The translations under genes and the position numbers were made by a program. A model generated the notes under the pieces. The model saw nothing but the letters and a program-made list of their open reading frames with translations. It was not told the origin of the DNA and did not search any database. A stretch of 64,000 nt of DNA from Minisyncoccota bacterium. GTDB taxonomy: Bacteria > Patescibacteriota > Minisyncoccia > Phycocordibacterales > JABAAK01. This document shows positions 4,685 through 49,841 of the stretch, piece after piece (the stretch's first letter is position 1; every line of letters starts with the position of its first letter). The stretch is taken from positions 377,548 to 441,547 of the forward strand of contig OZ241963.1 of the NCBI GenBank assembly GCA_965204115.1, given 5' to 3'.

Positions 4685-4705
4685 CCCCCCTCCTCCTCTC
4701 CGCAA
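4685..4705 (+). repeat. Third copy of the tRNA-Ser 3'-end core (CCTCTCCGCAA) in the oxidase/spondin divergent intergenic region
   Basis: 11-12 nt identical to the last nucleotides of tRNA-Ser(GCT), preceded by a C/T-rich tract; chance expectation for a specific 11-mer in this window is ~0.03. Confidence 0.35.
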
Positions 4706-4759
4706 TTTTACACAGTCACAAATAAAAACAACACTGCGTGGCGTATAGTAAGTGTAAAT

Positions 4760-5488: not shown

Positions 5489-5499
5489 CTTTCTTCTTT

Positions 5500-14972: not shown

Positions 14973-14983
14973 ATACTTCTGTA

Positions 14984-16225
14984 TTAGAGCAGTCTACCAC
15001 TTAATCGTCTTTTTGCAACATCACAATATTCTTTTGATATATCAATTCCCAAATATCTTCTGTCAAGTGTGTGGGCAACACTAGTGGTCGTCCCAACGCC
15101 ATTAAAAACATCTAATATTACATCGTTTTTAAAACTAAACAACTTTAGACATCGTATCACAAGGTTTTCAGGAAACATTGCAGGATGGCCGTATTCTTTC
15201 ATTTTTCTTTCTGGTGCGATAGACCACTTAGCGACAACCCATTTTTTAAACTCCTCTGCTGATATATCAATGTTTTCTGCATCTCCTGCATGCTTTAAGT
15301 CACCCTTGCAAAAAACCTCAATGAATTCCCATGTGTACTTGAGGTATGGGCTGCTCGGACTCTTCCAACTACCCCACGCTGTATACTTGCAATTATAGTT
15401 GTTTTTTTCCCACAATATCTCCCCTTTCCAAAGCATGCCGATATCCAACAGGTACTTGGAAATAAGATGATGTGTCGGGATGTAATCTGAAAACAATGGT
15501 TGCACATTCACAATCATTCGCCCTCCGTGTTTTAACACTCGCCTTGTTTCATTTAGTATAGCGAAAAGTTGCGTAAAGTACTCATCCCATCTTTTATCAT
15601 CTTCACCACTTTCATATTCAAGACCAAAGTTGTATGGTGGCGATGTTACCATCACATCAATGCAATTGTCAGGTAATTTTTTGAGCACCTCCAAACTGTC
15701 ACCGCATACTATCGCGTTTTCATATTCAGATGGCAAGATGTTTGTTTGTGTGTCGTTTTTATTATTTTTTTTCTTTACGCTGGCAGTTCTCTTCTCAGAT
15801 TTTTCTTTTCTGTTCTTTACCTTTCGCTCCTTATTAAAATTAATATATACTCTTTTCCCGCTTCGCAATCCATATGAACCAATGCTGTCGACCGCCTCAA
15901 CGAAATCGTCAATTAAATCTACCATTACCAGATCTTCACCTTCACTTGCTTTTATCTCTAATGCTCGTATTTTGAACTTTTCAAAGTTAAGATTATTAAC
16001 AAAAAGCTTTACTTCCCTTGCTCCCTTTGGCTCAAAGTAGATATGGTTATCAAATTCGTTGAAAAACGAGCGCATGACATCTTGGCTTTTCTTGTCAAAT
16101 TGATGCCTGGTTCTCAATGCAACCTCTTTATATTCCATATGTTTAGTATATCTCACAAAATTTATTGTCAATAATGATATCCCGAATTGATGAATGATTG
16201 CAAAATGCGCAGTAAATCTTATCAA
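14984..16225 (-). CDS. Beta-class DNA methyltransferase (SPPY motif, probably N4-cytosine or N6-adenine) with N-terminal extra domain
   Basis: Motif IV TSPPY precedes the C-terminal AdoMet motif I VILDVFNGVGTT (beta-class order). The N-terminal ~160 aa is unassigned; an internal start at MEYKEV (~16138) is possible. Confidence 0.8.
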   Translation of the reverse strand: MIRFTAHFAIIHQFGISLLTINFVRYTKHMEYKEVALRTRHQFDKKSQDVMRSFFNEFDNHIYFEPKGAREVKLFVNNLNFEKFKIRALEIKASEGEDLVMVDLIDDFVEAVDSIGSYGLRSGKRVYINFNKERKVKNRKEKSEKRTASVKKKNNKNDTQTNILPSEYENAIVCGDSLEVLKKLPDNCIDVMVTSPPYNFGLEYESGEDDKRWDEYFTQLFAILNETRRVLKHGGRMIVNVQPLFSDYIPTHHLISKYLLDIGMLWKGEILWEKNNYNCKYTAWGSWKSPSSPYLKYTWEFIEVFCKGDLKHAGDAENIDISAEEFKKWVVAKWSIAPERKMKEYGHPAMFPENLVIRCLKLFSFKNDVILDVFNGVGTTTSVAHTLDRRYLGIDISKEYCDVAKRRLSGRLL

Positions 16226-16283
16226 GCAGCATAGACAGCAAATTGATTATATTCCGATTCTTTGTTACAGTTACATTCTCACA

Positions 16284-18281: not shown

Positions 18282-18401
18282 ACTGTTTATTTTAACATTA
18301 AATATCCTAATTTTTAATTATCTTAGATGTATTTTGGGCGCCCGCTTGATTCGGATATGTCGTATGTCGTAAAAGAGTAATCTGCGAGTGAGTGATGTTG
18401 G

Positions 18402-19415
18402 TTATTCAACCGTGAGGACGATGCCGTCTTTTTGGTGGTGGGTTGCCCAGGAGAACCAGAGCTCGAAGTAGCCGGGTAGTTGTTTGTTGTTTGTGTGGGC
18501 TGTTATTTCGCCGCCGTTGCGGGTGATGGTGAGTGTTTTTCCTTGAATGATGAATGTTTGTGTGCCGTCTGTGAATTGTCGGTATGGGAGGGCGATTGAC
18601 TTTTCGCCGAGGGGGATGACATACATCAGCTCTTTCGCATGAAACCGTTTGTCTGAAACTGATACCGGAAATATGGTGTTTTCTGTTTCGGTGTAGCCGG
18701 CGTATGGGTTGGCTGTGTAGTTTCGCGAAAACCCGGTGTCGGTGCTCAGCACTTCTGTGTTTGGATATTTTTCCCGTACTTCACTCAGGGTTATAACCTG
18801 TAGCGGCAATATGGAGAGTTTTTCTCCGGTGTATGCGCCGACAACTGCATCAGTTCGCGCTTGTGACCACAGCGACTCAGTGGCGGTGTCGTACATAAGC
18901 AGATTGGATTCAAATAATAGTCCGCTCACACCGAAGCTGAGTGTTGTGCCTCCGACACGGCGGTCAAATACGATACCTGAGTCACAGAGCGGGCAGAAGG
19001 TGACGGCAATCGGTGTTTCACCTATCGTGTCGTTCACGATCTCATGCCAGACAAGAATGCTGTACGGATAAAAACGGCGTACTCCGTGCAGTGCGGCAAG
19101 AATGCCTCGTGCATCGTCCGCGACCTCTGTTTCGGAGAGTGGTACAAATGTCGGGTTGTTGATAGCAGGAATCCCGTCTTTCCCTGGCCCGCCGGACAAG
19201 ATGTCCTGGAGGTCAATGGTTTTCTTTGTGGTGTCAGTTTTGAGGCCGAAGGTAGGTAAGAATGACCGCTCTGCCGGCTCTGACGGTGCTGTTTTGTGCT
19301 GCCTGTTATAGAGCCCGGTAAGCAAGAGGAGTATAAAAAGGGTTATGGCGATTCCGGTGATGGATTTCCTGCTGAGTTCCTGTTGTGTCTTGCTTTTTGT
19401 GTTACATGTAGTCAT
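18402..19415 (-). CDS. DUF3179-family secreted protein
   Basis: N-terminal TM/signal region; GGPGKDGIPAINNPTF and a CPLCDSG motif typical of DUF3179. Confidence 0.6.
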   Translation of the reverse strand: MTTCNTKSKTQQELSRKSITGIAITLFILLLLTGLYNRQHKTAPSEPAERSFLPTFGLKTDTTKKTIDLQDILSGGPGKDGIPAINNPTFVPLSETEVADDARGILAALHGVRRFYPYSILVWHEIVNDTIGETPIAVTFCPLCDSGIVFDRRVGGTTLSFGVSGLLFESNLLMYDTATESLWSQARTDAVVGAYTGEKLSILPLQVITLSEVREKYPNTEVLSTDTGFSRNYTANPYAGYTETENTIFPVSVSDKRFHAKELMYVIPLGEKSIALPYRQFTDGTQTFIIQGKTLTITRNGGEITAHTNNKQLPGYFELWFSWATHHQKDGIVLTVE

Positions 19416-19454
19416 ATTGAGATACCTTGTGTGGATTCAGCGAGGGTTCCGATG

Positions 19455-22400
19455 CTACTCCGCATCGTTGGAGTGGGTGGCGCCAATATTGCCCGCTCTG
19501 TCACGCACGATGAAACAGACGCCGTTTAGAGCGGTGGTGGGCAACTCGTAGAAGGTGAACGGTGTGTATTCGTCGCCATCGGTCGGGAAGACGGTGAGCG
19601 CGTCACATTCGGTTTTGGTCATCGCCTTTACCGCGACGGTGTCAACAGAGTCAACGGCCGCGGGCGGATCGCTGGGCGCGCCGAAGATGACTATGTCTTC
19701 GCTGCCAGTGATATTCCGGTCTTCTATACGAGAGAGCTGCATGCGCGGACTATTGACATCAATGGCAACGGTAAATTGTTCGGATTCCTGAGAGGTGTTC
19801 CCTGCGATGTCGGTCGCGGTCGCGGTGAGGGCGATAAGTCGTGATTCCTCAGGTAGGGTTCGGGTGATGGTGGCGGGAGTCCCGTCACTTCCAATGACTC
19901 CACTCGCGCCTCCTGAATCGGACAAAACAGCAACGGTATTCGGTTCAGCGCTTATCAAGAAGGTCAGATCGGTGAAGCGGTTGGTAATCCCATCCGAATT
20001 GCTCAAGCCGCTATCGTATTCGGTGGCGAGCGTGATGGCGGATGGCGGCGCGGGCGCGGTGGTGTCAATAATAATATCAAGCTGCTGTGTTGAAGTGGTC
20101 ACATTGCCCGGTATGTCCGAGACCGTTATACTCACCTGCTGCGGCTTGTTCTCGTCGTCGGGTTGCACGATGTAGGAGGCGTTGTAGCTGCCGGGGACAC
20201 CGGTTACCGACAGCGCGGTGCCGATCGCATCTGTGCCGGTGAATATACGCACGGTCGGTAGGGCGTTGTTGAAATTCAAATCTGACTCGGAAAATACTAT
20301 GTTGATGGTGTCACCCGCTTTCGCGTACTTACCGGTGTTGTTGACGGTGCCGGATGTGTTCGTGATGATCTCACCGACGAAAGGCGGTGTGGTGTCTATG
20401 TCAATGATACGCGCCGAGCGGGCGAACGAGACATTGCCGACTGCGTCGCGGGCGCGGAAACAGACATACTGCCCGTTGTACGCTTCGTCGTCCAGCACGA
20501 TACTTCCTCCGGAGGTGTAGAGATCGCCGTCTGTGTCGCTGTCAATCAGGGTTTCGTCACAGACATCACTTGTGATGACATATCGGTCGCCGGCATCCAC
20601 GGCAAGACCGGTCACGCTCGCGCTGACGACTTTTAGCCGGGCAGGGTCGGATGTCGGTCCGAATGGTGTTATGACCGGACCGGTTCGGTCTATGCCGGTA
20701 ATCTGCGCCGAGCGGGCGAACGAGACATTGCCGATTTCGTCGCGGGCGCGGTAACAGATGTAGCGTCCGTTGTATGCCTCGTTGTCCAGCACGATATTCC
20801 TGCCTGAAACATACAGATCACCATCGGCATCACTCGCGATTACGGTTTCATCACAGGCCCCGTCCGTGATGACATATCGGTCGCCGGCATCCACGGCAAG
20901 ACCGGTCACGCTCGCGCTGACGACTTTTAGCCGTGCTGTGCCGGGTTCCGGTCCGAATGGTGTTATGACCGGACCGCTCTGGTCTATGCCGATAATCTGA
21001 TCAGATCGCGTGAATGAGATATTGCCGACTGTATCAGCGGCGCGGAAACAGACATGCTGCCCGTTGTATGCTTCGTCGTCCAGCACGATACTCTCTCCGG
21101 AGGTGTAGAGCTCGCCGTCTGTGTCGGTTCTGATCAGGTCGGAATCACACGCATCGCCGGAGATGATGTAGCGGCTCTTTGCTACATCGGCATCGCCGGT
21201 GATACTGGCACTGACACTCTTGACGAGCGCCGGCTCGGTCGTTAGATCAGCAACCGCAATGGTCGGTGCTGTGGTGTCTATCCCGTCTATCTGTAGTGAG
21301 CGCACAAACGAGACATTGCCGGCTTCATCGCGGGCGCGGTAACAGATGTAGCGTCCGTTGTATGCCTCGTTGTCCAGCACGATATTCCTGCCTGAAACAT
21401 ACAGATCACCATCGGCATCACTCGCGATTACGGTTTCATCACAGGCCCCGTCCGTGATGACATATCGGTCGCCGGCATCCACGGCAAGACCGGTCACGCT
21501 CGCGCTGACGACTTTTAGCCGTGCTGTGCCGGGTTCCGGTCCGAATGGTGTTATGACCGGCGGTGTTCGGTCTATGCCGGTGATCTGTGCGGAACGGGCG
21601 AATACGATATTACCGATAGCGTCTCGTGTACGGAAACAGACATGCTGCCCGTTGTACGACTCACTGTTTAGCGCGACATTTGTGCCGGGAATATAGAGTT
21701 CGCCGTCGATATCGCTTGCAATCAGCGCTTCATCACAGGGCTCGCCTGAAATGATGTACCGCGTACCCGTGGCAACCAGTGAGAGATCCGTGATTTCTGC
21801 GCTGATGTTTTTTATTCGTGCCGTACCCCCGGAAAGCGCGGCGACATTGATAGACGGACCGGAGGTGTCTATCCCGTTTATTTGCTGCGAGCGGGCGAAC
21901 GAAACATTGCCGATCGCATCGCGGGCGCGGTAGCAGATGTAGCGTCCGTTCTGCTCCCGATCATCCAGTATGATACTGCCGCCGGAGGTATACGCCTCGC
22001 CGTCGGCATCACTCGCGATCACGGTTTCATCACAGACCTCGTCCGTGATGACATATCGGTTACCGACCGCCTCAGCGAAGCCGGTTACCCGTGCGTTGGC
22101 GACTTTCAGCCGCGCCGCGCCGGATTCCGGTCCGAACGGTGTGATGACCGGACCGCTGCGGTCTATGCCGGTGATCTGCGCGGAACGGGCGAACGAGACA
22201 TTGCCGATCGCGTCGCGCGCGCGGAAACAGACATATTGCCTGTTGTACGCTTCATCATCCAGCACGATACCGCCGCTCGGGGTATATGCTTCGCCGTCGG
22301 TATCACTTGCGATCACGGTTTCATCACAGACCCCGCCCGTGATGACATATCGGTTGCCGGCGTCTGCGGCAAGGCCGGTAATACTCACTGCGGCGACTTT

Positions 22401-25400
22401 TACCTGCAAGGTACCGGGTTCCGGACCGACCGGTGTGATGACCGGTGGTGTCCTATCTATGTCGGTTATTTGCTCAGATCGGGCGAACGAGACATTGCCG
22501 ACCGTGTCAGCGGCGCGGAAACAGATATATTGCCCATTGTACGATTCATCGTCAAGCGCGATATCCGTGCCGGAGGTATACGGCTGTCCGTCTGCGCTAC
22601 TGCCGATGAGAGAGGCATCGCAGGCACCAGTTGAAATAGCATACTGACTACCGACGGTTGCTGATCTGTCGGTTATCACTGCGCTGACGGTCTTCTCTTG
22701 TGAGGTTCCCGATGCCGGATTGTTCAGGGTGATAGTCGGACCGACACGGTCAATGCCGGTGATCTGCTCAGATCGGGCGAACGAAACATTGCCGACCGTG
22801 TCTGCTGAGCGGAAGCAGACATACTGCCCGTTGTATGTCTCGTTGTCCAGCGTAATGTCCGCGCCGGGGACATAGGGTTCGCCATCTGAGTCGCTGCCGA
22901 TGAGGTCTGTGTCGCAGGCGCCGTTTGCAATACGGTACCGACTACCCGCTGCTGCAACATTGCCAGTAATGGTGGCACTGACGGTTTTTGTCTGTGCTTC
23001 ACCGGTGATTGGTTCAGTAATAGTGATCACCGGAGCAGTTCGGTCTATCCCGCTGATCTGTTCGGAACGGGCGAATGCGATGTTACCCACTTCATCGCGA
23101 GCGCGGAAACAGACATAGTGTCCGTTGTGTGCCTCTTCATCCAGCACGATGTTCTCGCCGGCGGTGTAATTCACGCCATCTGAGTCGCTACTGATGAGTC
23201 TGCTGTCACAGTTTCCGTCTGAGAGTATATATTGCGTACCGGTGTCAACAGGCAGTCCGGTCGCGCTCGCGCTCGCGACTTTCAGCCGCGCAAGACCGGC
23301 TGACGGACCGAGTGTCGTGATAACCGGTGGTGTCCTATCTATGCCGGTGATCTGCTCAGATCGGGCGAACGAAACATTGCCGACCAAATCTGAAGCGCGG
23401 AAACAGGCGTACTGCCCGTTGTATGTCTCATCGTTGAGCGCGATGGTCGCGCCGGAGGTGTACGGTCTGCCGGTCGCGCTGTTACCGATGAGCGATTCAT
23501 CACAGGAGGCATCTGAAATGATATAGCGTGTGTCCGTCGTGATTGCACCGTCGGTAACAATCGCGCTGACAAACTTCTCCTGCGCGGCACCTGTTGACGG
23601 GTCGTTCAGGGTGATGGTCGGACCGGTGCGATCTATGTCAGTGATACGCGCCGAACGGACGAACGAGACATTGCCTGCCGCGTCTCGAGCGCGGAAACAG
23701 ACATGTTGCCCGTTGTATGACTCGTCGTCAAGCGTGATATCCGTGTCGGAGGCATAGAGTTCGCCATCCGCGTCGCTACTGATGAGGGTCGCATCACAGG
23801 CGGATGATGTAATAAGGTATCGCGTGCTCTCAGCGACCGCATCACCGGTGATGACGGCACTCACCAGTTTTTCCCGCGCGTCGCCGAATGCCGGATCAAC
23901 CACCCGCACTGTCGGTGCAGTGCGGTCTATGCCGGTGATCTGCGCGGAACGCGTGAACGAGACATTACCGACCGCGTCGCGAGCGCGGAAGCAGACATAC
24001 TGTCCGTTGTATGCCTCGTCATCAAGTGTGATACTCTTGCCGGAGGTGTATGCTTCGCCGGCAATGTCGCCGCTGATAAGGGTTGCATTGCAGACACTGC
24101 CGGCAATAGTGTACCTGCTGCCGGTAATAGCGGCATCCTCGGCAATCGCAGCGCTGACGGTCTTTTCCCGCGCCGCTCCCACTACCGGATCGGTTACTGT
24201 TACTGTCGGACCGGTACGATCTATGCCGGTGATCTGCTCAGATCGGGCGAACGAGACATTACCGACCGCGTCGCGTGCGCGGAAGCAGACATATTGCCTG
24301 TTGTACGCCTCGTCGTTGAGTATGATGGTCGCGCCGGAGATATACGGTCTGCCGGTCGCGCTGTTACCGATGAGCGATTCATCACAGGAGGCATCTGAAA
24401 TGATATAGCGTGTGTCCGTCGTGATTGCACCGTCGGTAACAATCGCGCTGACAAACTTCTCCTGCGCGGCACCTGTTGACGGGTCGTTCAGGGTGATGGT
24501 CGGGCCGGTGCGATCTATGTCGGCTATCTGCGCGGAGCGGGCGAATGAGACATTGCCTGCCGCATCCGAGACGCGGAAGCAGACATACTGTCCGTTGTAT
24601 GCTTCATCGTTGAGCGCGATATTTGTGCCGGAGGCATAGAGTTCACCATCTGTATTACTGCTGATGAGTGCTGCGTCACAGGCGGATGATGTAATAAGGT
24701 ATCGCGTGCTCTCAGCGACCGCATCACCGGTGATGACGGCACTCACCAGTTTTTCCCGCGCGTCGCCGAATGCCGGATCAACCACCCGCACTGTCGGTGC
24801 AGTGCGGTCTATGCCGGTGATCTGCGCGGAACGCGTGAACGAGACATTACCGACCGCGTCGCGCGCCCGGAAGCAGACATACTGCCCGTTTTGCAGCTCA
24901 TTGTTCAGTGTAACCTCCTCTCCGGAGGTGTATGCTGCCCCTTCGGTATCGCTGCCGATGAGATCAGCATCACAATCTTCAGAAGAGATGGCGTACCTGC
25001 TGCCGGCAGTAGCGGCATCTTCGGCAATCGCAGCGCTGACGGACTTCTCTCGCGCTGTTTCTCCTGCCGGATTGGTCACTGATACTGTCGGACCGGTACG
25101 ATCTATGCCGGTTATCCGCGCGGATCGGGCGAAGACGATGTTATTCACTGTGTCACGCGCCCGGAAGCAGACATACTGTCCGTTGTATGCCTCGTCATCA
25201 AGTGTGATACTCTCGCCGGAGGTGTATGCCGTTCCCTCAGTATCGCTTCCGATGATGTCCGCATCGCAGTCCTCGGTTGTGATGTCATATCGGCTTGCCG
25301 CGGCAATCAGGTGGGTGTCCTCAATCTCCGCGCTGATACTCTTCAGCTGTGCCGCTCCTGATGTCGGCTCGGTGATACTGATTGACGGCTTAATCCGGTC

Positions 25401-28400
25401 AATACCGTCAATCTGCGCCGACCGAGTGAACGAGACATTGCCGACTGCGTCGCGTGCCCTGAAGCAGACATGTTGCCCGTTGTACTCTTCCTTATCCAGG
25501 TTGATGGTATTACCGGCGGTGTAGGAGGTGCCGTCTGTGTCGCTGCCGATGAGATCACTGTCGCAGTCTTCGGTTGTAATGGCATATCGGCTACCGATGG
25601 CGATCGCGATGCCGGTAATACTCGCGCTGACCACTTTCAGCGGCGAGACCCCCGCTGTCAAGCCGAGTGTCGTAATAGTCGGACCGGTGCGGTCTATGCC
25701 GGTTGTCTGCGCGGAACGGGCGAATGAAATATTGCCGGCACTGTCGGATGCCCGGAAGCAGATATGCTGCCCGTTGTATACCTCATCATTAAGGGTTATG
25801 CTCTCTCCGGATTGGTATGTCTGCGCATTGAAACCGATAAATAGTTCAGTATCACAATCTTCGTCTGCAATGCGGTACTTTGTTTCCGTCGCTGATGAGT
25901 CCGTGATCTTGGCACTCACGGTTTTTGTCCGCGCCGCGCCGGTTGCCGCCTCGGTGATGGTGATGTTCGGACCGCCGGTGTCAATGGTTACAGTGATGTC
26001 AGATGTCCATGCGTCCGTATTGCCGGCATCGTCCAGCGCCTGTAAGTATATCCGTTGTGGACTGCGGTTCTCGTCACCGACAGCGATGGTATAGGTGCCA
26101 GTATAGGTGCCGTCGGCACCCTTATTCACCGTTACACTTTCACCGCTTGTCTTCCCGCTGCTGAAAATTCGCATAACCGGATCGGTTCCCAAATGCTCGT
26201 CAACGATCACAGCGTTCACGGTGATGGTATCCCCCGTGCCGGCATAGGTAGTGCCGTCAGCGTCGGAACCTGAGCTCGTTATGGTTACTCCCCCGAAGGT
26301 CGGTTCCGTTCGGTCAATGTTGTCAATCACCGAAGAGCGCGCGAAACGCACATTACCCGCTTCGTCGCGTGCCCGGAAACAGACATACTGCCCGTTTTGC
26401 AGCTCATTGTTCAGTGTAACCTCCTCTCCGGAGGTGTACGCTGTCCCTTCGGTATCGCTGCCGATGAGATCAGCATCACAATCTTCAGAAGAGATGGCGT
26501 ACCTGTTCCCCACACTGACCGGGTTCGCGTCCGTGATGGTCGCGGCAACGGTTTTCTCCCGCGCTGCGCCTTCCGCCGGTTCTGTGACGCTGATTGTCGG
26601 TGCGCTTCGGTCTATTCCGGTGATCACCGATGAGCGCGCGAATGAGATATTGCCGATAATATCCCGGGCGCGGAAACAGACATACTTACCGTTATGCTGC
26701 TCACTGTTCAGATCAATGTCCGTGCCGGAGATGTATGCATTGCCGCTACTGTTGTCGCTGATAAGGTTTTCATCGCATGCGCTCTCTGAAATGACATACC
26801 GTGCACCGGCGATAACGATGTTTTTGTCCGTGATGCCCGCTTTGAGCGTCTTTTCCTGTGCCGCGCCGGTGGCGAGTGATCCGACACTGATAACCGGATC
26901 AACTGTGTCAATGATGACTCCGATATCGACTCCGCGTCCGCTGAGGTTTCCGGCTGCGTCACGCGCCTCCATGTGCAGGAGTTGCGTTGAACGATCTTCA
27001 TCGTCGGCACGCACGGTGTAGGTCGCGGTGTAGGTGCCGTCGTTGTTGTCGGTCACTTGCATTGCTTCGCCGAGTGTGCTGTTCTCGCTGAAAATCTTGA
27101 CTGTGGGCAGTCCGCTGAAGTTCGTGTCCGATACAGAGAGTGTGGCGGTGATGGTGTCTCCCGCTCCGGCATAGTAGGTGCTTTCGTAGGCACTGTCTGT
27201 GGTGACCGAAACGGTGCTAATAACCGGATTCGTTCGGTCAATGCCGGTGATCACTTTTGAGCGGGCGAACGAAATATTGCCCACCGCATCGCGCGTCCTA
27301 ACACAGAGGTACTTGCCGTTGTAGGTTTCACTGTTGAATGCGATGCCGCTGCCGGAAACATACCGATCGCCTTCAGTGTCCGAACCGATGACCTCCTCGT
27401 CACAGGAGCCGTTCGCAATGATCGCGCGGCGAGTGCCGGCGGCAATTGCATCCGCACTGATGGTCACACTAATTGTCTTTGTGTTCGTTACACCGTCCGG
27501 ATGAATAATACTGATTGTCGGCCCGGTGCGGTCAATACCGCTTATTTTCGCCGATCTCGCGAAGACGACATTCCCCGCCTTGTCCCGCGCGCGGAAGCAG
27601 ACATACTGCTCGTTATACGCTTCGTCGTTCAGCGTGATCTCCGCGCCGGAGGTGTAACTGTTGCCGCTCGTGTCGCTTGCGATGAGGTCTTTATCGCATG
27701 TTTTGTCTGAGATACTGTAGCGAGTGCCGCTCGTGAGTATGCCGCTGCCGACATCACTGAGTGTCGCGCTGACTGTTTTCTCCCGTGATCCGCCTGCTGG
27801 TATAGCGGTAACACTGACAGTCGGCGCCGCGGTATCAATGACCACCCCGAGTGTGCCGGTGCCGGTGCTGACATTGTCGGCGTCATCCTGCGCCCGCACA
27901 AATATCTTTTGCACAGCACTGTCTTCGTCATCAGGGCGTACTGTGTGGGTTAGCGTATAGTTTCCATTATCAATTCTGTTCACCGTCATAGCGGTGCCGC
28001 CCGTCGTTGTCTCGCTGAATATCCGCGCTTCCGGAAGTGCGATGAGATTTGAATCGGCAATGAGTACGGTTCCGGTGATAATATCCCCCGCTTTCGCATA
28101 CTTCACACCGTTGGCAGTGATGCCGGTGGTGGTGATATGTATATTACCGATCGCCGGACTGATTCGGTCTATTCCGGTGATCATCGACGAGCGGGCGAAC
28201 ACGATATTGCCGGCACTGTCACGCGCGCGGAAGCAAACATACTTCTCGTTGTAATGTTCACTGTCCAGCGCGACATTATTACCGGAAGTATATGCCTTGC
28301 CATCATCGTCATTGCCAATGAGGTCTGCATCACAATCGTCTGCTGAAATAGTGTAGCGGGTGCCGCTGGTGTCCGCGTCCGCGCTGACAATCGCGCTGAT

Positions 28401-31400
28401 GCCTTTCTCCCGCTGCACGCCGCTCCTCGCCTCGGTAATACTGATGGTCGGTGCCGTGGTGTCTATGCCCGTCACTTGTGTCGAACGCGCGAATGAGACA
28501 TTGCCCGCGACATCAATTGTCCGAAAGCAGACATAACTGCCATTTTGCGCTTCGTCGTCCAACACAATCGCGCGACCGGAGGTGTAGGGTTCGCTGTTCG
28601 CACTGGCTGCCAGGGTACTCTCGTTGCAGATTGAGCTTTTTGAAATGAGGTATCGCGCACTTTTGGGGTTCGCGTCTATTATTTTCGCACTAACGGTTTT
28701 TTCCTGTGCCGTGCCGCTTGATGCTTCGGTAACGGTAATCGTCGGTACGGTGGTGTCAACAATTATTGTTTTTCCGTATCCGTCGGTACCGCCGGCGTAG
28801 GTGGTGTCGGGAATGGTGTTACCCACTGCATCGGCAATTGCCTTGATGGTGAAGCTTAGATCACCGTTCTCCCCCGCGACAACAGTGTGTACCCATTGAA
28901 AAATTTTCGCATTATTCGCGCCGTCTTGCGACAAAATGATCGGTGTGCCGGTGACGGTCTCTCCGTCCAGATGTATCGCTATGCGACTAACCGCGTTATC
29001 CGAGAAACTGAGCTGGTCAGCGACGGTTGCCTGGATGGTTATCTGATCTCCCGCCTGTGCGGCAGTTGTAATCTCGTTGTTCGTGGTCGCGTGTACGCTT
29101 GAGAGTGTCGGCGGGGTGGTTTCCGCTTCAATAATCTTAATTTCCTGACTTTCGTCGGGTGCTGCGTTTCCCGCATTGTCCTTTAAATCGGTAACAGACC
29201 ATCTCAACACGCCGTTGTCTCCGGGCTGGATCGTGTACGGGTACCGTACATGACCGGCGGCGGCACCCTCAACAGTACCCGCTTCCGCATCTCGGTACGC
29301 TTCGTCGCCGAACTTTACTTTCCAGAGCCCCGCGCTGTGCGAAGAAAAGCCGCTGGCGCTCACTTCGTTGTTGTATCTCCGTTCAATGATGATCGTACTG
29401 CCTGCCGGAAGGTACTTAACGACGCCGTCAAATCTTTTTTTGGCGGCATCGCTGGTGCCGTTGATGTAATAATCGGTTGCACTTGCAACCGGTCTCGTGG
29501 TGTCTATGACCACCCCGATGTCAACGCGATGACCTCCGGCATTACCGGCATCATCACGCGCCTCCAGGTGAATCTTTTTCGGGGTTTTACTCTCATCGCC
29601 CGACTGGACGGTATAGGTGGCGATGTACCCCTGCTCGCCGGTTTTCCTCACGGTCATGCCGGTGCCGCCGGCAGCGCTCTCGCTGAATACTCGCATCACC
29701 GGAAGCGTGGTCAGGTGCTCGTCAGAAACGGTTGTAGTCGCGACGATGTCATCCCCCGCTTTTGCGTATTTATTGGTGCCGTAGACATTGCCCGAAGTGG
29801 TTACGGCGATATTCCCTATTACCGGATTTGTGCGGTCTATGTCGGCGATTTGCGCCGAACGCGCGAATGAGACATTGCCGAGTGTGTCACGCGCGCGGAA
29901 ACAGATGTAGGAACCGTTCTCATCTTCCCTGTTCAGCGTGATAACACTGCCGGAGGTGTAGTTCACACCGGCGGTGTCACTCCCGATAACACTTTCGTCG
30001 CAGTCCTCAGATGAAACTGTGAAACGGATACTGCCGGTGACGGCAGTTGCGTCAATTGTCGCGTGCATGGTTTTCTGTCGAGCAGCACCTCCTCCGGGTC
30101 CGACAGTGGTGATAGATGGTCCCGTCCGGTCTATGCCGTTTATCCGCGCAGATCGCGCGAACGAAATATTACCCGCTTTATCGCGTGCCCGAAAACAGAG
30201 ATATGTGCCGTTGTACCCTTCATTTTTCAGGACGACAGCTTCGCCTGAAGTCCATGCGCTCCCCACCCCATCACTACCGATGAGTGCTTCGTCACAAGTC
30301 GCGCTTGAGATAACATAACGGTTGCCGGTTGCGTCCGTGTTGGTGTCTGTTACGGTCGGGGTTATGCTCTTGCTCTGCGCTGCGCCTGACGCAGGGTCGG
30401 AGATGCTGAGTGCCGGGCTTGTGGTATCGATTTTCATCGCGTTCGTTGACACCTGCACGGTTGTGCTTTTGCCGTCGCTTGCCGCGAAACAGGCATATTT
30501 GCCGGAATGATTTTCTGTGTTGAAAGTTGCCGTGTACTCCTCGCCACGCTCCGGTGACGGAACGACCACAAAGGATGTTGGCGGTGTGGTGCCGTTATAT
30601 GTGGAATTATCGAGGCATTCTGCACTGGTTTCGACTTGCTGATAGCTCAAGTACAGCGTGTCATTTGGGTTAACATCACTAAGGCGCACGGTAAAGCCGT
30701 GCGATCTTGCCCAAGTGTTCGGGATATCATTAATTATTGTCAGTATCGGTGGGGTATTTTGTGGTGCGATAGCCGGAGAGACAGCACTGCGTATGTTTCC
30801 TGAGTAATCTTCCGCATAGACGCATATCTTGTCGGACAGGGCATTCGGCACGGTATACGAGTAGGACACCTCCTTTGGTAATCCCCCCGGTTCCACGACT
30901 TTCCCGCTGCTGACCTCGTTGTAGGTATCGCAGGCAGTTGAGTCCTCAGACCCGCTGATTTTTAGTGCGCCGTAGCGGTATATACCTGACTGGCTGTCTG
31001 TAATATTGATCGTATAGTTTTTTTCCACTTCTGGTGTGCCTGGAAAGGTTATAATAGGGGTGGTGTTATCCGGCTCATCTGCTTCAATGCTGTTGAGTGT
31101 CCAGGTTTCGTTATTCGCAGTGTTGCCCGCATTGTCGCTCGGTCCGGTGAGGGAAAATTTGAGTACGCCGTCGTCGCCAGGAGCGATGGTGTATGAGTAC
31201 CTCACCCTGCTGTTGCTGTCAAACACGGTGCCGTTGCTCATATTCCTCCACCGTCCGTTGCCGAATCTGATCCGCGCTACGCCGGCGTTCCCCGGAGACA
31301 GACCGCTCTCTCTTCCTTCGTTGGCGTACAACAGCATAATGGCAATCCGGGTGCCGGCGTTCACTTTACTGTGAACATTGAGATTTTTCTTCACCTCGTT

Positions 31401-31907
31401 AATGAAATAGTCAGTTGTGGTGCGTACCGGAGGTCTGGAATCTATTCGCAGTGTTCCGTGGAGCGGTATGTTCACGATGCCCCATGTGTCAAAAAACGAC
31501 ACGCATGCCTTGTTTGTTACTGTAAATAAACCGTGCTTAATGGGAAACTGTATGTTCCTTGTCTGTTCTCGATTACCCGGCACACTCAGCTGTACGCTAT
31601 TTGAAATTTCAGTCGCGTGGCCGTTGCAATTTGGATGTGAAAAATTGAGAAGACGCATCTCGGGGCGCACGGTCGCGGAGCTGAATGTCCGGTAGGTGAA
31701 GGTTACCCATGCGGCGATAGTATCGTTGTTACCCAGCCACCTGTTAATATTTGAAGTGTACGAAGCCCTGTTCGCCGCAAAAACATTCGGCATAAACACC
31801 GTTAAACCGATGAACGGCACAAAACATATGAGTAAAATATAAAGGGCTACTCGATACCTGCGAACGAAAAAAGACCTGTCCATAGGTGATGGGACTAAAA
31901 TTGACAA
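19455..31907 (-). CDS. Giant (4150 aa) membrane-anchored surface protein with ~35-40 tandem ~95-aa Ig-like repeats
   Basis: Single 12.45-kb ORF with N-terminal TM helix. Repeat unit ..GIDRTGPTI(T/S)..G.A.EKTVSA.I.D....RY.IS...CD..LIGSD..G..YTSG..I.LDDEAYNGQYVCFRARDAVGNVSFARSAQIT. Many repeats are near-identical at the DNA level. Confidence 0.85.
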   Translation of the reverse strand: MSILVPSPMDRSFFVRRYRVALYILLICFVPFIGLTVFMPNVFAANRASYTSNINRWLGNNDTIAAWVTFTYRTFSSATVRPEMRLLNFSHPNCNGHATEISNSVQLSVPGNREQTRNIQFPIKHGLFTVTNKACVSFFDTWGIVNIPLHGTLRIDSRPPVRTTTDYFINEVKKNLNVHSKVNAGTRIAIMLLYANEGRESGLSPGNAGVARIRFGNGRWRNMSNGTVFDSNSRVRYSYTIAPGDDGVLKFSLTGPSDNAGNTANNETWTLNSIEADEPDNTTPIITFPGTPEVEKNYTINITDSQSGIYRYGALKISGSEDSTACDTYNEVSSGKVVEPGGLPKEVSYSYTVPNALSDKICVYAEDYSGNIRSAVSPAIAPQNTPPILTIINDIPNTWARSHGFTVRLSDVNPNDTLYLSYQQVETSAECLDNSTYNGTTPPTSFVVVPSPERGEEYTATFNTENHSGKYACFAASDGKSTTVQVSTNAMKIDTTSPALSISDPASGAAQSKSITPTVTDTNTDATGNRYVISSATCDEALIGSDGVGSAWTSGEAVVLKNEGYNGTYLCFRARDKAGNISFARSARINGIDRTGPSITTVGPGGGAARQKTMHATIDATAVTGSIRFTVSSEDCDESVIGSDTAGVNYTSGSVITLNREDENGSYICFRARDTLGNVSFARSAQIADIDRTNPVIGNIAVTTSGNVYGTNKYAKAGDDIVATTTVSDEHLTTLPVMRVFSESAAGGTGMTVRKTGEQGYIATYTVQSGDESKTPKKIHLEARDDAGNAGGHRVDIGVVIDTTRPVASATDYYINGTSDAAKKRFDGVVKYLPAGSTIIIERRYNNEVSASGFSSHSAGLWKVKFGDEAYRDAEAGTVEGAAAGHVRYPYTIQPGDNGVLRWSVTDLKDNAGNAAPDESQEIKIIEAETTPPTLSSVHATTNNEITTAAQAGDQITIQATVADQLSFSDNAVSRIAIHLDGETVTGTPIILSQDGANNAKIFQWVHTVVAGENGDLSFTIKAIADAVGNTIPDTTYAGGTDGYGKTIIVDTTVPTITVTEASSGTAQEKTVSAKIIDANPKSARYLISKSSICNESTLAASANSEPYTSGRAIVLDDEAQNGSYVCFRTIDVAGNVSFARSTQVTGIDTTAPTISITEARSGVQREKGISAIVSADADTSGTRYTISADDCDADLIGNDDDGKAYTSGNNVALDSEHYNEKYVCFRARDSAGNIVFARSSMITGIDRISPAIGNIHITTTGITANGVKYAKAGDIITGTVLIADSNLIALPEARIFSETTTGGTAMTVNRIDNGNYTLTHTVRPDDEDSAVQKIFVRAQDDADNVSTGTGTLGVVIDTAAPTVSVTAIPAGGSREKTVSATLSDVGSGILTSGTRYSISDKTCDKDLIASDTSGNSYTSGAEITLNDEAYNEQYVCFRARDKAGNVVFARSAKISGIDRTGPTISIIHPDGVTNTKTISVTISADAIAAGTRRAIIANGSCDEEVIGSDTEGDRYVSGSGIAFNSETYNGKYLCVRTRDAVGNISFARSKVITGIDRTNPVISTVSVTTDSAYESTYYAGAGDTITATLSVSDTNFSGLPTVKIFSENSTLGEAMQVTDNNDGTYTATYTVRADDEDRSTQLLHMEARDAAGNLSGRGVDIGVIIDTVDPVISVGSLATGAAQEKTLKAGITDKNIVIAGARYVISESACDENLISDNSSGNAYISGTDIDLNSEQHNGKYVCFRARDIIGNISFARSSVITGIDRSAPTISVTEPAEGAAREKTVAATITDANPVSVGNRYAISSEDCDADLIGSDTEGTAYTSGEEVTLNNELQNGQYVCFRARDEAGNVRFARSSVIDNIDRTEPTFGGVTITSSGSDADGTTYAGTGDTITVNAVIVDEHLGTDPVMRIFSSGKTSGESVTVNKGADGTYTGTYTIAVGDENRSPQRIYLQALDDAGNTDAWTSDITVTIDTGGPNITITEAATGAARTKTVSAKITDSSATETKYRIADEDCDTELFIGFNAQTYQSGESITLNDEVYNGQHICFRASDSAGNISFARSAQTTGIDRTGPTITTLGLTAGVSPLKVVSASITGIAIAIGSRYAITTEDCDSDLIGSDTDGTSYTAGNTINLDKEEYNGQHVCFRARDAVGNVSFTRSAQIDGIDRIKPSISITEPTSGAAQLKSISAEIEDTHLIAAASRYDITTEDCDADIIGSDTEGTAYTSGESITLDDEAYNGQYVCFRARDTVNNIVFARSARITGIDRTGPTVSVTNPAGETAREKSVSAAIAEDAATAGSRYAISSEDCDADLIGSDTEGAAYTSGEEVTLNNELQNGQYVCFRARDAVGNVSFTRSAQITGIDRTAPTVRVVDPAFGDAREKLVSAVITGDAVAESTRYLITSSACDAALISSNTDGELYASGTNIALNDEAYNGQYVCFRVSDAAGNVSFARSAQIADIDRTGPTITLNDPSTGAAQEKFVSAIVTDGAITTDTRYIISDASCDESLIGNSATGRPYISGATIILNDEAYNRQYVCFRARDAVGNVSFARSEQITGIDRTGPTVTVTDPVVGAAREKTVSAAIAEDAAITGSRYTIAGSVCNATLISGDIAGEAYTSGKSITLDDEAYNGQYVCFRARDAVGNVSFTRSAQITGIDRTAPTVRVVDPAFGDAREKLVSAVITGDAVAESTRYLITSSACDATLISSDADGELYASDTDITLDDESYNGQHVCFRARDAAGNVSFVRSARITDIDRTGPTITLNDPSTGAAQEKFVSAIVTDGAITTDTRYIISDASCDESLIGNSATGRPYTSGATIALNDETYNGQYACFRASDLVGNVSFARSEQITGIDRTPPVITTLGPSAGLARLKVASASATGLPVDTGTQYILSDGNCDSRLISSDSDGVNYTAGENIVLDEEAHNGHYVCFRARDEVGNIAFARSEQISGIDRTAPVITITEPITGEAQTKTVSATITGNVAAAGSRYRIANGACDTDLIGSDSDGEPYVPGADITLDNETYNGQYVCFRSADTVGNVSFARSEQITGIDRVGPTITLNNPASGTSQEKTVSAVITDRSATVGSQYAISTGACDASLIGSSADGQPYTSGTDIALDDESYNGQYICFRAADTVGNVSFARSEQITDIDRTPPVITPVGPEPGTLQVKVAAVSITGLAADAGNRYVITGGVCDETVIASDTDGEAYTPSGGIVLDDEAYNRQYVCFRARDAIGNVSFARSAQITGIDRSGPVITPFGPESGAARLKVANARVTGFAEAVGNRYVITDEVCDETVIASDADGEAYTSGGSIILDDREQNGRYICYRARDAIGNVSFARSQQINGIDTSGPSINVAALSGGTARIKNISAEITDLSLVATGTRYIISGEPCDEALIASDIDGELYIPGTNVALNSESYNGQHVCFRTRDAIGNIVFARSAQITGIDRTPPVITPFGPEPGTARLKVVSASVTGLAVDAGDRYVITDGACDETVIASDADGDLYVSGRNIVLDNEAYNGRYICYRARDEAGNVSFVRSLQIDGIDTTAPTIAVADLTTEPALVKSVSASITGDADVAKSRYIISGDACDSDLIRTDTDGELYTSGESIVLDDEAYNGQHVCFRAADTVGNISFTRSDQIIGIDQSGPVITPFGPEPGTARLKVVSASVTGLAVDAGDRYVITDGACDETVIASDADGDLYVSGRNIVLDNEAYNGRYICYRARDEIGNVSFARSAQITGIDRTGPVITPFGPTSDPARLKVVSASVTGLAVDAGDRYVITSDVCDETLIDSDTDGDLYTSGGSIVLDDEAYNGQYVCFRARDAVGNVSFARSARIIDIDTTPPFVGEIITNTSGTVNNTGKYAKAGDTINIVFSESDLNFNNALPTVRIFTGTDAIGTALSVTGVPGSYNASYIVQPDDENKPQQVSITVSDIPGNVTTSTQQLDIIIDTTAPAPPSAITLATEYDSGLSNSDGITNRFTDLTFLISAEPNTVAVLSDSGGASGVIGSDGTPATITRTLPEESRLIALTATATDIAGNTSQESEQFTVAIDVNSPRMQLSRIEDRNITGSEDIVIFGAPSDPPAAVDSVDTVAVKAMTKTECDALTVFPTDGDEYTPFTFYELPTTALNGVCFIVRDRAGNIGATHSNDAE

Positions 31908-39635: not shown

Positions 39636-39920
39636 ATGACCCCGTTTAAGAAAAGAGTGTTTGCCATTGTTTCCCGCATCCCGAAAGGGTCGGTGATGAC
39701 CTATGGAGAGGTCGCGGCGCGAGCAGGATCACCCGGCGCGGCGCGAGCGGTTGGGAGCAGCATGGCACAAAATGTTGACCCCGCAGTTCCCTGCCACAGA
39801 GTTGTGCGATCTGACGGCAAAATCGGAAAATATAACCGAGGAGGGGTTTCCCGGAAAAAACAGCTTTTGCAAGATGAAGGTGTGGTGGTTATCGGTGATC
39901 GAGTAAAGTGTTTCACATAG
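39636..39920 (+). CDS. MGMT-family DNA-binding domain protein (O6-alkylguanine-DNA alkyltransferase C-domain only), PCHRVV active site
   Basis: 94 aa; the YGEVAARAG..RAVG...NP..VPCHRVV pattern is the MGMT C-terminal domain with catalytic Cys retained. Confidence 0.7.
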   Translation: MTPFKKRVFAIVSRIPKGSVMTYGEVAARAGSPGAARAVGSSMAQNVDPAVPCHRVVRSDGKIGKYNRGGVSRKKQLLQDEGVVVIGDRVKCFT

Positions 39921-40390
39921 CGACATGTTTCACGTGAAACACTCCATTTGAGAAAAACCTTGATTTTTCGTTGGGGTGTTTCACATAGCCACATGTTTCA
40001 CGTGAAACACTTTTGACGCTTTCCTATGTGAAACATGTTTCACGTGAAACACTCCATTTGAGAAAAAACCTTGATTTTTCGTTGGGGTGTTTCACATAGC
40101 CACATGTTTCACGTGAAACACTTTTTTAAAAAACCTTGATTTTGTGTAGAGTGTTTCACATAGCGACATGTTTCACGTGAAACACTTTTGCTGCTTTCCC
40201 TTGTGAAACATGTTTCACGTGAAACACTCCATTTGAGAAAAAACCTTGATTTTTCGTTGAGGTGTTTCACATAGCCACATGTTTCACGTGAAACACTTTT
40301 TTAAAAAACCTTGATTTTGTGTAGAGTGTTTCACATAGCGACATGTTTCATGTGAAACACTTTTCTCTGTGAAACATGTGAAACACTTTT
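39917..40390. promoter_or_regulatory. Tandem array of 8 parS centromere sites (7 perfect TGTTTCACGTGAAACA, 1 with a central C-to-T change), plus half-sites, in ~240-bp higher-order repeats
   Basis: Perfect 16-mers at 39926-39941, 39994-40009, 40036-40051, 40105-40120, 40169-40184, 40211-40226, 40280-40295; variant TGTTTCATGTGAAACA at 40344-40359. Matches the Bacillus/general ParB-Spo0J parS consensus TGTTNCACGTGAAACA. Confidence 0.75.
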
Positions 40391-40497
40391 TTGTAAAAAA
40401 TCATAATTTGTATTATTGTCAAAGTTATGGTTTAATATTTTTTTAAGTTGCTTGATTCTGTGTTCCGTCTTCCGGTGCTTATATACTGTGTATAACT

Positions 40498-40863
40498 ATG
40501 TTCATATTGTGTAAATTTTTTGGAAATATTGGGGAGAAGTATGCTGAAAAGTATTTGAAAAGTTGTGGATATAAAATTATAGCTCGACAGCACAATGCAA
40601 AATTTGTGGAAATTGATATCCTGGCTCAGCGAGAGGGAACACTCTATCTCTTTGAGGTTAAAACTTCTTCGCGAAGCATCTCCGATCACTCACCATTCCA
40701 CCCCGCTTATCGCGTCAACCAACGCAAGATCAAAAAGATGAGTCAGTTCGCTGACGCCTATTTGAATAACCATCAGGAATATGTCGGAGCTGCTATTGGA
40801 GTCATCGTTGTTTCTCTCGCTGAGGAATTGTCACACCCGGAGATTGAGATCATTTGGACTTGA
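40498..40863 (+). CDS. yraN: YraN/UPF0102-family predicted endonuclease
   Basis: GEKYAEKYLKSCGYKIIARQHNAKFVEIDILAQREGTLYLFEVKTS matches the UPF0102 pattern (GE.A..YL...G..I..RN.R...GEIDII....TLVFVEVK). The first half of the gene is unusually AT-rich. Confidence 0.6.
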   Translation: MFILCKFFGNIGEKYAEKYLKSCGYKIIARQHNAKFVEIDILAQREGTLYLFEVKTSSRSISDHSPFHPAYRVNQRKIKKMSQFADAYLNNHQEYVGAAIGVIVVSLAEELSHPEIEIIWT

Positions 40864-40926
40864 TCTTCGTAGAGCAGGGAAGTGTCTCGCTCCCATGTTA
40901 CAATTCTTATGTGATGGTGCCGCTTA

Positions 40927-48716: not shown

Positions 48717-49262
48717 CTATGCGCTGTTGTCGGCAATGTCTGTGACTGGTTTTCTCGGAGTTCGTTCTTCCGTTTCATTTGCCTTCTGTGTTGGTTTGCC
48801 GACCGCTATAGCGGCAAAGATTTCGTACTCCTTTTTATCCACACCTAATTCACTGTACGCGCGCACTTCATCAAAACCGCCCATCGCATGCGCGCTCAGT
48901 CCAATGAGGTGCGCCTGCAGCGCCAATGCCATCCATGCGGCGCCGGTGTCAAAGGCGTAGTGTCTGTTTTGCTCTCCGGTCTCGCTGAGTATTCGTTTCG
49001 CCGCGAGGAAAAAAATGATTCCTGCGTTTTTTGCCCACTCCTGATTCCCGTCAAAAAGTAGATTGAGGAATTTCTTCTGCTGATTGTCGGTTTTGGGGTA
49101 GAAAAATTTCCACGGTTGCTCGTTATAGCTGGACGGCGTCCAGCGCGCTGCTTCAAGCAGTGTGTCTATCTGCTCCTGCGTGAGCGCCGTGCCGTCATAA
49201 TCACGACTGCTCCATCGGTTGATGAATTGCGGTGCGACTCCTTCTGCGTCGGTCTTTTTCAT
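48717..49262 (-). CDS. Nitroreductase-family oxidoreductase
   Basis: RWSSRDY .. LLEAARWTPSSYNEQPW typical of the nitroreductase fold; 181 aa. Confidence 0.75.
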   Translation of the reverse strand: MKKTDAEGVAPQFINRWSSRDYDGTALTQEQIDTLLEAARWTPSSYNEQPWKFFYPKTDNQQKKFLNLLFDGNQEWAKNAGIIFFLAAKRILSETGEQNRHYAFDTGAAWMALALQAHLIGLSAHAMGGFDEVRAYSELGVDKKEYEIFAAIAVGKPTQKANETEERTPRKPVTDIADNSA

Positions 49263-49290: not shown

Positions 49291-49385
49291 TCTGTGAAAC
49301 GAGTGTATCAAAAAGCTTGAAAAATAAAGGCGGGTTGTCCTGTGAAACGCGTGAAACACCGTTTCACGCGTTTCACAGGTCATCC
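49291..49385. promoter_or_regulatory. Nested near-perfect 39-bp palindrome CTGTGAAACGCGTGAAACACCGTTTCACGCGTTTCACAG plus an extra CTGTGAAACG copy; candidate operator in a divergent intergenic region
   Basis: Arms are exact reverse complements. Half-sites are related to, but arranged differently from, the parS half-site GTGAAACA. Confidence 0.5.
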
Positions 49386-49484
49386 ACAGAACACCCATAA
49401 CGGATTCACAAATTATATTTGTATCTGCTATAGTATGAACAGGGTTTGTGTACATTCTATTTCTATCTTGTAGGAGGTTTTAAA

Positions 49485-49841
49485 ATGTATGTACTCATTA
49501 GGGTAAAGGAGGCAGGTTTAGAGAAAAAGTTTGGATTTCTGTCAACTCCCAAGCCGGATGGTTTGTTTCGACGAATGGTGTATGAGATAAAATTTCTTAT
49601 TTCATACTTTAAGTTTAGATTTCATTGTACGAATGTAGAAGTCCGAAAAGGTGAGCGACCTCCGAGATTTCCGGTTTTAGTGCTTGAAAGGCCTATTTCA
49701 AAAGATTCCGGAGGGTTGCTCAAAAAATTCCACCACGGGTGTGAGGCCGTGGTTGAAAAACATAGAGGGAACTATTATGTTGTATGCTCTGACAACTCGT
49801 TATGGTATCCTGGTGACACAGTTTCTGTTGAAAGCGTGTGA
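49485..49841 (+). CDS. Hypothetical protein
   Basis: AGGAGG RBS 8 nt upstream of ATG 49485; followed by the hairpin at 49851-49870; no recognised domain. Confidence 0.45.
   Translation: MYVLIRVKEAGLEKKFGFLSTPKPDGLFRRMVYEIKFLISYFKFRFHCTNVEVRKGERPPRFPVLVLERPISKDSGGLLKKFHHGCEAVVEKHRGNYYVVCSDNSLWYPGDTVSVESV

Follow-up and report, generated by a model that had tools for sequence, protein, structure and literature searches.

The 64-kb window studied here, which is the whole stretch of DNA that was analysed (64,000 nucleotides of Minisyncoccota bacterium contig OZ241963.1, assembly GCA_965204115.1), contains a dense tandem array of parS sites, the palindromes of ParABS centromeres. An earlier reading of the same letters, called here the original prediction, placed the array between a minimal MGMT-domain gene and a yraN-like gene, and both flanks are as stated (Table 1). 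Upstream lies a protein that has only the DNA_binding_1 domain of MGMT, and downstream lies yraN, of the UPF0102 group in the PD-(D/E)xK nuclease family. The intergenic region between them is 577 bp long, most of it array, and has 35% GC compared with a window mean of 50%.

The DNA of the window is chromosomal and belongs to an ultrasmall, Kaiserbacteria-like member of the Patescibacteria, or candidate phyla radiation (CPR). Its YraN is 69% identical to a protein annotated as Candidatus Kaiserbacteria, and the window carries housekeeping genes: 11 tRNAs, trigger factor, NusA, pyrophosphatase, phosphoglycerate kinase, triosephosphate isomerase and class-I lysyl-tRNA synthetase (LysRS), together with the CCA enzyme, an M17 peptidase, uracil-DNA glycosylase and dCTP deaminase. 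The array is probably the chromosomal centromere, a parS cluster, of this genome. It is called a putative centromere on grounds read from the sequence: the canonical sites are unique in the 64 kb, the GC skew switches there, and an array is kept in every relative examined.

Composition of the array

The sites match tGTTNCACGTGAAACa, the 16-bp palindromic consensus of chromosomal ParABS centromeres, seven perfectly and one with a single mismatch. Counting bore out the original prediction of seven perfect copies of TGTTTCACGTGAAACA and one single-mismatch copy within about 470 bp, the eighth being TGTTTCATGTGAAACA. The chance expectation is 0.02 sites per 64-kb window, and no shuffle reached eight. 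Perfect or one-mismatch sites elsewhere in the 64 kb number zero, and when up to three mismatches were allowed there was a single further weak match in the whole 64 kb outside the array sites.

The extra half-sites that had been predicted are also present. The array holds 25 GTTTCAC/GTGAAAC half-sites, and 10 of these lie outside full sites: six in modules of the form GTGTTTCACATAGCSACA, two in fusions of TGTGAAACA to TGTTTCACGTGAAACA, and two in the terminal repeat TGTGAAACATGTGAAACA. Every module (6/6) abuts a full parS, and the first one overlaps the stop codon of the MGMT-like gene, so that the first half-site of the array covers the last codons of that gene. The motif AAAAACCTTGATTTT, which was expected in the spacers, was counted five times.

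The repeat structure is not the one first proposed, which was about 2.5 repeats of about 240 bp with two sites each. Tandem Repeats Finder returned a period of 175 bp in 2.6 copies with 93% matches at 39908-40364, and sub-periods of 64 and 111 bp; the ungapped self-identity of the array is 0.82 at a lag of 175 compared with 0.31 at a lag of 240. Each 175-bp unit carries three sites, with full-site spacings of 64, 42 and 69 bp, and the spacers between the palindromes are 26–53 bp long.

Table 1. Features of the array, its flanks and a related palindrome (positions in the window; a point in the strand column as in the feature list)
Feature	Position	Strand	Details
MGMT DNA_binding_1-only protein, 94 aa	39636..39920	+	Pfam PF01035, E=8.5e-31
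Whole parS array	39908..40385	.	8 full sites, 10 extra half-sites, 5 spacer motifs
Half-site module GTGTTTCACATAGCSACA	39908..39925	+	n=6: 39908, 39976, 40087, 40151, 40262, 40326
Higher-order repeat copy 1	39908..40082	.	175 bp, three parS
Higher-order repeat copy 2	40083..40257	.	175 bp, three parS
Higher-order repeat copy 3, partial	40258..40364	.	~0.6 unit, two parS including the variant
parS 1, perfect TGTTTCACGTGAAACA	39926..39941	.	
parS 2, perfect TGTTTCACGTGAAACA	39994..40009	.	
parS 3, perfect TGTTTCACGTGAAACA	40036..40051	.	reverse half-site TGTGAAACA directly before, 40027-40035
parS 4, perfect TGTTTCACGTGAAACA	40105..40120	.	
parS 5, perfect TGTTTCACGTGAAACA	40169..40184	.	
parS 6, perfect TGTTTCACGTGAAACA	40211..40226	.	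reverse half-site TGTGAAACA directly before, 40202-40210
parS 7, perfect TGTTTCACGTGAAACA	40280..40295	.	
parS 8, variant TGTTTCATGTGAAACA	40344..40359	.	C8T
Spacer motif AAAAACCTTGATTTT	39953..39967	+	n=5: 39953, 40064, 40129, 40239, 40304
Terminal direct repeat TGTGAAACATGTGAAACA	40368..40385	+	two half-sites; yraN-proximal array end
AT-rich leader, array to yraN	40386..40497	+	TTGTCAAAG at 40416; conserved CTGTGTATAACTATG at yraN start
yraN (UPF0102, PD-(D/E)xK nuclease family)	40498..40863	+	Pfam PF02021, E=3.6e-16
Perfect 41-bp palindrome (CTGTGAAACGCGTGAAAC-ACC-GTTTCACGCGTTTCACAG)	49340..49380	.	four outward-facing parS half-sites; 9 kb from array

Two other identities were considered and rejected. 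The spacer motif is unlikely to be a site for integration host factor: by inspection, its reverse complement, AATCAAGGTTTTT, departs from WATCAANNNNTTR at the final R, and the variant found in relatives is without ATCAA. The array is not a guide array of the tandem interspaced guide RNA (TIGR) or CRISPR type. TIGR arrays have alternating 8–12-nt repeats and 9-nt spacers (36-nt units) with a Nop-domain tas gene adjacent (PMC12045711), and CRISPR-like arrays were taken to have 23–47-nt repeats beside cas genes; the palindromes and spacers described above are of other sizes, with neither a tas nor a cas gene nearby. An Rfam scan of the window returned tRNAs only. Phasing of A/T tracts, as in curved DNA, was significant in tandem-repeat arrays, in which it can result from harmonics of the repeat and from parS itself, and was absent in six arrays at other loci (L107, L062, L068, L086, L119 and L193).

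The locus in close relatives

The array is kept in the MGMT-yraN intergenic region of eight relatives (L200, L202, L203, L204, L205, L206, L207 and L208), whose YraN is 59–93% identical to that of the window. The relatives keep the synteny around it (tRNAs, LysRS, CCA enzyme, M17 peptidase), and the MGMT-like neighbour is conserved in L200, L202 and L205-L208. Immediately upstream of the L203 array, at 4375-5164, an insertion sequence (IS) element with a DDE_Tnp_1 transposase has inserted beside an MGMT-like gene that is truncated; the left flank is thus not immune to rearrangement.

The units in L200 and L208 are the same as in the window. L202 has eight perfect sites and a unit of ~181 bp with three sites, L203 (YraN 65% identical) has seven sites, L204 has ten sites in four 115-bp units, mostly TGTTTCACGTGAAACG, and L205 has ten sites in three units of ~182 bp. 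The GTGTTTCACATAGCSACA-type module is conserved in L202, L204 and L205. With the arrays anchored on the parS core, an A/T-tract motif, AAAACCYTTRTTTT, which is a variant of AAAAACCTTGATTTT, was found in all five Kaiserbacteria-type arrays, and in these a GTGTTTCACA half-site usually lies upstream of each parS. The counterpart of the terminal repeat in L205 is GTGAAACGCGTGAAACAC. The variant TGTTTCATGTGAAACA, in which the central CG has become TG, recurs as well, at 40344 in the window, 5474 in L200, 5738 in L203, and 5357, 5539 and 5722 in L205, and also in L069, a locus outside this group; either a functional variant that is tolerated or recurrent CpG deamination could explain it. Another motif, TTGTCAAA(T/G)T(A/G)T, flanks the array on either side, always in one orientation, in L202 (five copies, 5313-5933) and L204 (three copies, 5259-5908), and is almost absent from the remainder of these two 12-kb loci. 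The window has one copy, at 40416.

Identity between the window and L208 is 97–99% in the array units and 89–92% in the flanking genes. Since the units are more alike than the genes beside them, the spacers are constrained or homogenised, and are not drifting freely. The AT-rich composition of the first half of yraN, which the original prediction had taken as a hint of a recently built locus, is real but common to all the relatives, and with the array present down to 59% YraN identity the suggested recent origin does not hold. The occurrence of arrays at one intergenic site in the relatives, and upstream of yraN in other classes of the CPR, shows that the locus is old. The 175-bp higher-order amplification is the only recent part of it.

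A perfect palindrome with four half-sites that face outward lies 9 kb from the array (Table 1), in the promoter region that separates a nitroreductase gene (48717-49262, minus strand) from a divergent, unannotated open reading frame (ORF; 49446-49841, plus strand). Its GTGAAACRYGTGAAACAC element also ends the parS array of the window, at 40368, and that of L205. By this shared element the palindrome is possibly related to the array, and it may be a second type of site for ParB or a related protein.

Arrays upstream of yraN in other CPR bacteria

Dense arrays were sought in one genome per species, with at least three perfect sites, spaced 25–55 bp and within about 150 bp, as the definition. At least 119 such stretches were found, in many phyla. 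Eleven of the 119 listed are in Patescibacteria-type genomes, with parAB near none of the eleven, and seven of these lie directly 5′ of yraN (L040, L062, L069, L076, L100, L106 and L107), an arrangement seen in no non-CPR locus among the 119 listed. These seven distant CPR loci have perfect 16-bp cores with unrelated spacers, which points to selection on the sites themselves. The CPR arrays in L215 and L216 share this position with the window and with those seven. Most CPR arrays have unique spacers, in contrast to the recently amplified higher-order repeat of the window. No description of an array upstream of yraN, and none of CPR centromeres or ParB systems, was found in the searchable literature.

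In four of these arrays (L076, 2937-3204; L069, 888-1086; L107, 2465-2716; L062, 3889-4343) many of the parS sites are inside longer palindromes whose arms vary from site to site, for example CCGAAAA-parS-TTTTCGG and TTGCAA-parS-TTGCAA, the usual flanks being AAA...TTT. The window's own parS sites are not embedded in this way.

The arrangement was also sampled in the reverse direction, from 80 metagenome loci picked by CPR-type YraN homology alone, with a query built from a three-sequence CPR alignment; 69 had at least 400 bp upstream. Three or more parS were present within 1 kb upstream of yraN at 7 of the 69 loci, one more (L130) had five sites within 1.3 kb, two had a single upstream site, and 59 had no canonical parS upstream. 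Canonical arrays are thus present at about 12% of the sampled CPR yraN loci, and at more if variant palindromes are included. Several of the positives belong to one clade, so the independent lineages are fewer than the count.

Diverged palindromes take the place of parS at some of the negative loci. In L147, seven copies of TGTTTAGCGCTAAACA and three of TGTTTGTCGCTAAACA precede yraN (at 728) by about 430 bp; copies of TGTTTAGCGCTAAACA are fewer upstream of yraN in L146 and L142, and L150 and L152 have mixed variant palindromes at the same position. The outer arms of parS are retained in these palindromes and the central 6 bp are altered, a pattern of sequence change that may reflect co-evolution of ParB and parS in some CPR clades. 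Other canonical-negative loci have clusters of split half-sites.

Dense arrays in other phyla and known centromeres

Of the 119 dense arrays listed, 16 have eight or more sites, and larger examples include L053 (12 sites), L078 (18) and L068 (12). ORFs with both ParA and ParB signature motifs stand alongside 42 of the 119, and these 42, in other phyla, tie this type of array to ParABS systems. About one third of the listed non-CPR arrays directly abut parA-parB; the window array does not. In a scan of 2.9 million viral contigs there were six such stretches. According to the original prediction, a scatter over kilobases is normal for chromosomal parS sites. In view of these arrays, and of published precedents such as Myxococcus xanthus, that was an overstatement, and the density of the window array is not exceptional.

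In M. xanthus 22 chromosomal parS are packed into ~3 kb, at a distance of about 4 kb from parA/parAB (PMC3899335). Like the window array, this is a dense group of canonical 16-bp sites outside coding sequence; it lies near the origin and forms one partition complex, as the window array probably does. The spacing differs, with one site per ~140 bp in M. xanthus and one per ~55–60 bp in the window, and the window array consists of a 175-bp higher-order repeat with three sites and is without parAB for at least 24 kb on either side. Model bacteria have origin-proximal sets of parS: three in 7 kb on chromosome 1 of Vibrio cholerae, four in Streptococcus pneumoniae, parS1-4 in Pseudomonas aeruginosa and ten in Bacillus subtilis (PMC6238139, PMC7022226). 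The window shares with them the consensus and, presumably, a location in the origin domain, GTTTCAC half-site binding and the loading of ParB-CTP clamps. Their sites are kilobases apart and often within genes, whereas those of the window are all in 0.45 kb of one intergenic region.

The sopC centromere of the F plasmid consists of twelve tandem repeats of 43 bp, with ten inverted repeats of 16 bp (PMC6238139). It resembles the window array in its head-to-tail repeats carrying palindromic sites of the ParB type, one to each short unit in sopC, and a single sopC unit suffices. In contrast to the window array, which is chromosomal and has the pan-bacterial consensus, sopC is plasmid-borne, adjoins sopAB and uses a plasmid-specific motif for SopB. 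The unit of the window is also composite, with an A/T-tract motif, a half-site and a full site, and no partition genes are adjacent.

A few other loci from these scans may be recorded. The complete 3.5-Mb chromosome of a member of the Hyphomicrobiales (OZ245032.1; L028 and L035) has dense arrays at ~0.41 and 2.16 Mb, ~1.75 Mb apart, one with 9 sites in 415 bp and one with 8–9 sites in ~360 bp, neither beside ORFs with parAB motifs. In Gordonibacter faecis (L064) a stretch of 8 kb holds 16 perfect sites. A 3.4-kb contig binned as Methanobrevibacter (L104, NZ_JAZTXC010000110.1) carries a canonical parS triplet beside ORFs with ParA and ParB motifs, and is probably a mis-binned bacterial plasmid or contig in an archaeal metagenome-assembled genome (MAG).

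Position relative to the replication origin

Cumulative G-C falls over the first 18 kb of the window, is about flat to 41 kb and then rises steeply. The positive skew arm begins at the array, and the change of sign is that expected at a replication origin. Much of the plateau is accounted for by a single 4150-aa ORF on the minus strand (19455-31907), which has near-zero skew and, at 55–58% GC, is well above the mean of the window. The cumulative minimum falls at the edge of a low-GC island (14247-18281; 33–39% GC vs. ~50%) with strongly negative skew. Its products are an N6/N4 DNA methylase (14984-16225) and two proteins for which Pfam gave no hit. This is probably an acquired restriction-modification or defence island.

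In the clade of L076, L172, L151, L153, L215 and L216 the gene order is tsaD - array - yraN - x - yebC - ruvC - dnaA - dnaN, and the array is ~2.5 kb from dnaA in L076, L215 and L216. In L215 and L216 it holds the only parS of a 21-kb locus. YraN has been described as a single-stranded DNA endonuclease acting with ComM in the resolution of transformation D-loops (bioRxiv 10.1101/2024.02.06.579203). L215 (Paceibacterota) has genes for a ComM-type helicase (ChlI/Mg_chelatase domains), a PIF1 helicase and RecA at 16387-20471, 5–9 kb beyond dnaA; the reported partner of YraN and other recombination genes therefore cluster in one origin-proximal region.

The array as a probable centromere, and alternative explanations

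ParB dimers load at the parS palindrome, close into clamps on CTP and slide outward. At the window array ParB dimers would bind each palindrome, take CTP, close and slide onto the flanking DNA, and eight loading sites 42–69 bp apart would raise the loading rate and the local concentration of ParB, to give one partition complex of high occupancy. This complex would mark the origin-proximal region for segregation dependent on ParA, SMC or both, and probably for SMC loading. A single parS suffices and multiple sites add robustness; ParB also binds GTTTCAC half-sites (PMC7022226), which could account for the extra half-sites of the array. The three-site 175-bp repeat would derive from an old array that was recently duplicated in tandem or homogenised. 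As the array fills the region upstream of yraN, ParB occupancy may also dampen yraN transcription. A link from the ParB array to the role of YraN in recombination may exist, and is offered as a hypothesis only. Of the functions offered in the original prediction, a concentrated locus for ParB nucleation is the one that best fits canonical sites on a chromosome in the region of the skew switch, as predicted from the sequence.

Several observations weigh against a centromere. No ParB, ParA or SMC gene was found in the 64-kb window by signature ORFs and annotation, and no parAB was found within 10 kb of dnaA in L215 and L216, which do have the array. dnaA is absent from the window as well, and in place of a sharp skew minimum there is a 23-kb plateau, between 18 and 41 kb, for which reasons the location can be called origin-proximal only approximately. 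The number of sites is uncertain, since there are scaffold gaps of 100 N inside the L200 and L208 arrays and the short-read (Logan) contig L201 ends within the array. L205 has ten sites and L206 and L207 have four, with identical YraN and a difference of exactly two units (365 bp).

An unlikely alternative is that the array is primarily an operator for yraN, the MGMT-like gene or both, bound by ParB or another helix-turn-helix repressor, with a secondary role as a centromere or none. The array is always 5′ of yraN, 20–255 bp from the gene start, and in P. aeruginosa ParB acts as a repressor of genes with parS3 or parS4 in the promoter (PMC7022226). In L216 (~7440-7500) and L040 (~7460-7520) there is a consensus promoter, TTGACA-N17-TATAAT, whose spacer contains GTTTCAC and whose -10 element is directly followed by GTGAAAC; this split parS overlaps the likely promoter just upstream of yraN and is operator-like. 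The palindrome at 49340 places related half-sites in a second, divergent promoter region. Against this, 8–12 perfect pan-bacterial parS far exceed the needs of an operator, identical arrays adjoin parAB in other phyla, some CPR arrays have no adjacent yraN (L050, L068, L086 and L119), and 59 of the 69 sampled yraN loci are without canonical parS. In the window, a scan of the intergenic region for sigma-70 promoters and terminators gave nothing above the shuffled expectation.

It is equally improbable that the array lies within or adjoins oriC, the segregation sites and the unwinding region being one module. The steep positive arm of the skew starts at ~41 kb, at the array, and the array's intergenic region, with 65% AT, is the most AT-rich of the window. 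The top score for DnaA-box-like sequences in the window is at 40267-40867 (9, compared with a mean of 1.9 and sd of 1.6), L069 has two perfect DnaA boxes between array and yraN, and dnaA is nearby in the L076/L215/L216 clade. On the other hand, a perfect DnaA box is absent at the window array, the two one-mismatch boxes there are explained by the yraN start/promoter region and conserved C-G-Y codons, and the window-wide count of DnaA-like boxes is at chance. Cumulative skew reaches its lowest point at 18 kb and not at 40 kb, and the window is without dnaA.

It is highly improbable that the array belongs to an integrated plasmid or some other mobile element and serves it as a centromere, as the ‘plasmid-style’ centromere of the original prediction might suggest. 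The 2.6 copies of a 175-bp unit, each carrying sites for a partition protein, do recall sopC, the six stretches in viral or plasmid-like contigs carry such triplets, and many arrays of other phyla are on small contigs beside parAB. Yet parAB, rep, integrase and transposase genes are absent for tens of kilobases around the window array, its neighbours are housekeeping genes that are syntenic across species, and the site of the array is common to several CPR classes.

The gaps, the contig end and the 365-bp difference noted above show that the caution first given about collapse or expansion in assembly was well founded, and the array copy number is unstable or poorly assembled; but that the array itself, or its length, is an artefact is scarcely credible, given multi-site arrays at this locus in independent assemblies of at least eight related genomes and gap-free arrays of 7–10 sites on contigs of 0.49–0.85 Mb (L202, L203 and L204). 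Its existence is secure, and copy number alone is in doubt.

Implications

Taken individually, the element would be an ordinary, though unusually dense, parS centromere, and it leaves the understanding of ParABS unchanged. The more interesting by-product is the recurrence of an array upstream of yraN in the CPR, including lineages with a diverged palindrome. It is possible, though doubtful, that CPR bacteria use a single compact ‘regional’ centromere, of 5–12 ParB sites in 0.2–0.7 kb, anchored in the yraN promoter region. The retention of the position beside yraN when the palindrome has drifted would imply that ParB and parS have co-evolved at a fixed chromosomal address, and, if this is true, there may be a ParB-dependent coupling of the state of segregation or replication to the expression of yraN, and so to recombination or competence. 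The conserved A/T-tract motif and extra half-site of the Kaiserbacteria-type units would point to a composite nucleoprotein unit, not a bare parS, judging from the sequences compared.

The value of these arrays is comparative, as the CPR are almost entirely uncultured. Arrays break or collapse in short-read assemblies, and the site counts of MAGs are therefore not to be trusted. The order array-yraN, and array-yraN-ruvC-dnaA, is a simple landmark in the sequence by which the origin region can be placed when a CPR assembly is fragmented. The arrays also form a natural series that varies in site number, in spacing and, in some clades, in core sequence, and this series is a test set for the effect of parS number and spacing on ParB clamp loading, and for the evolution of ParB specificity.

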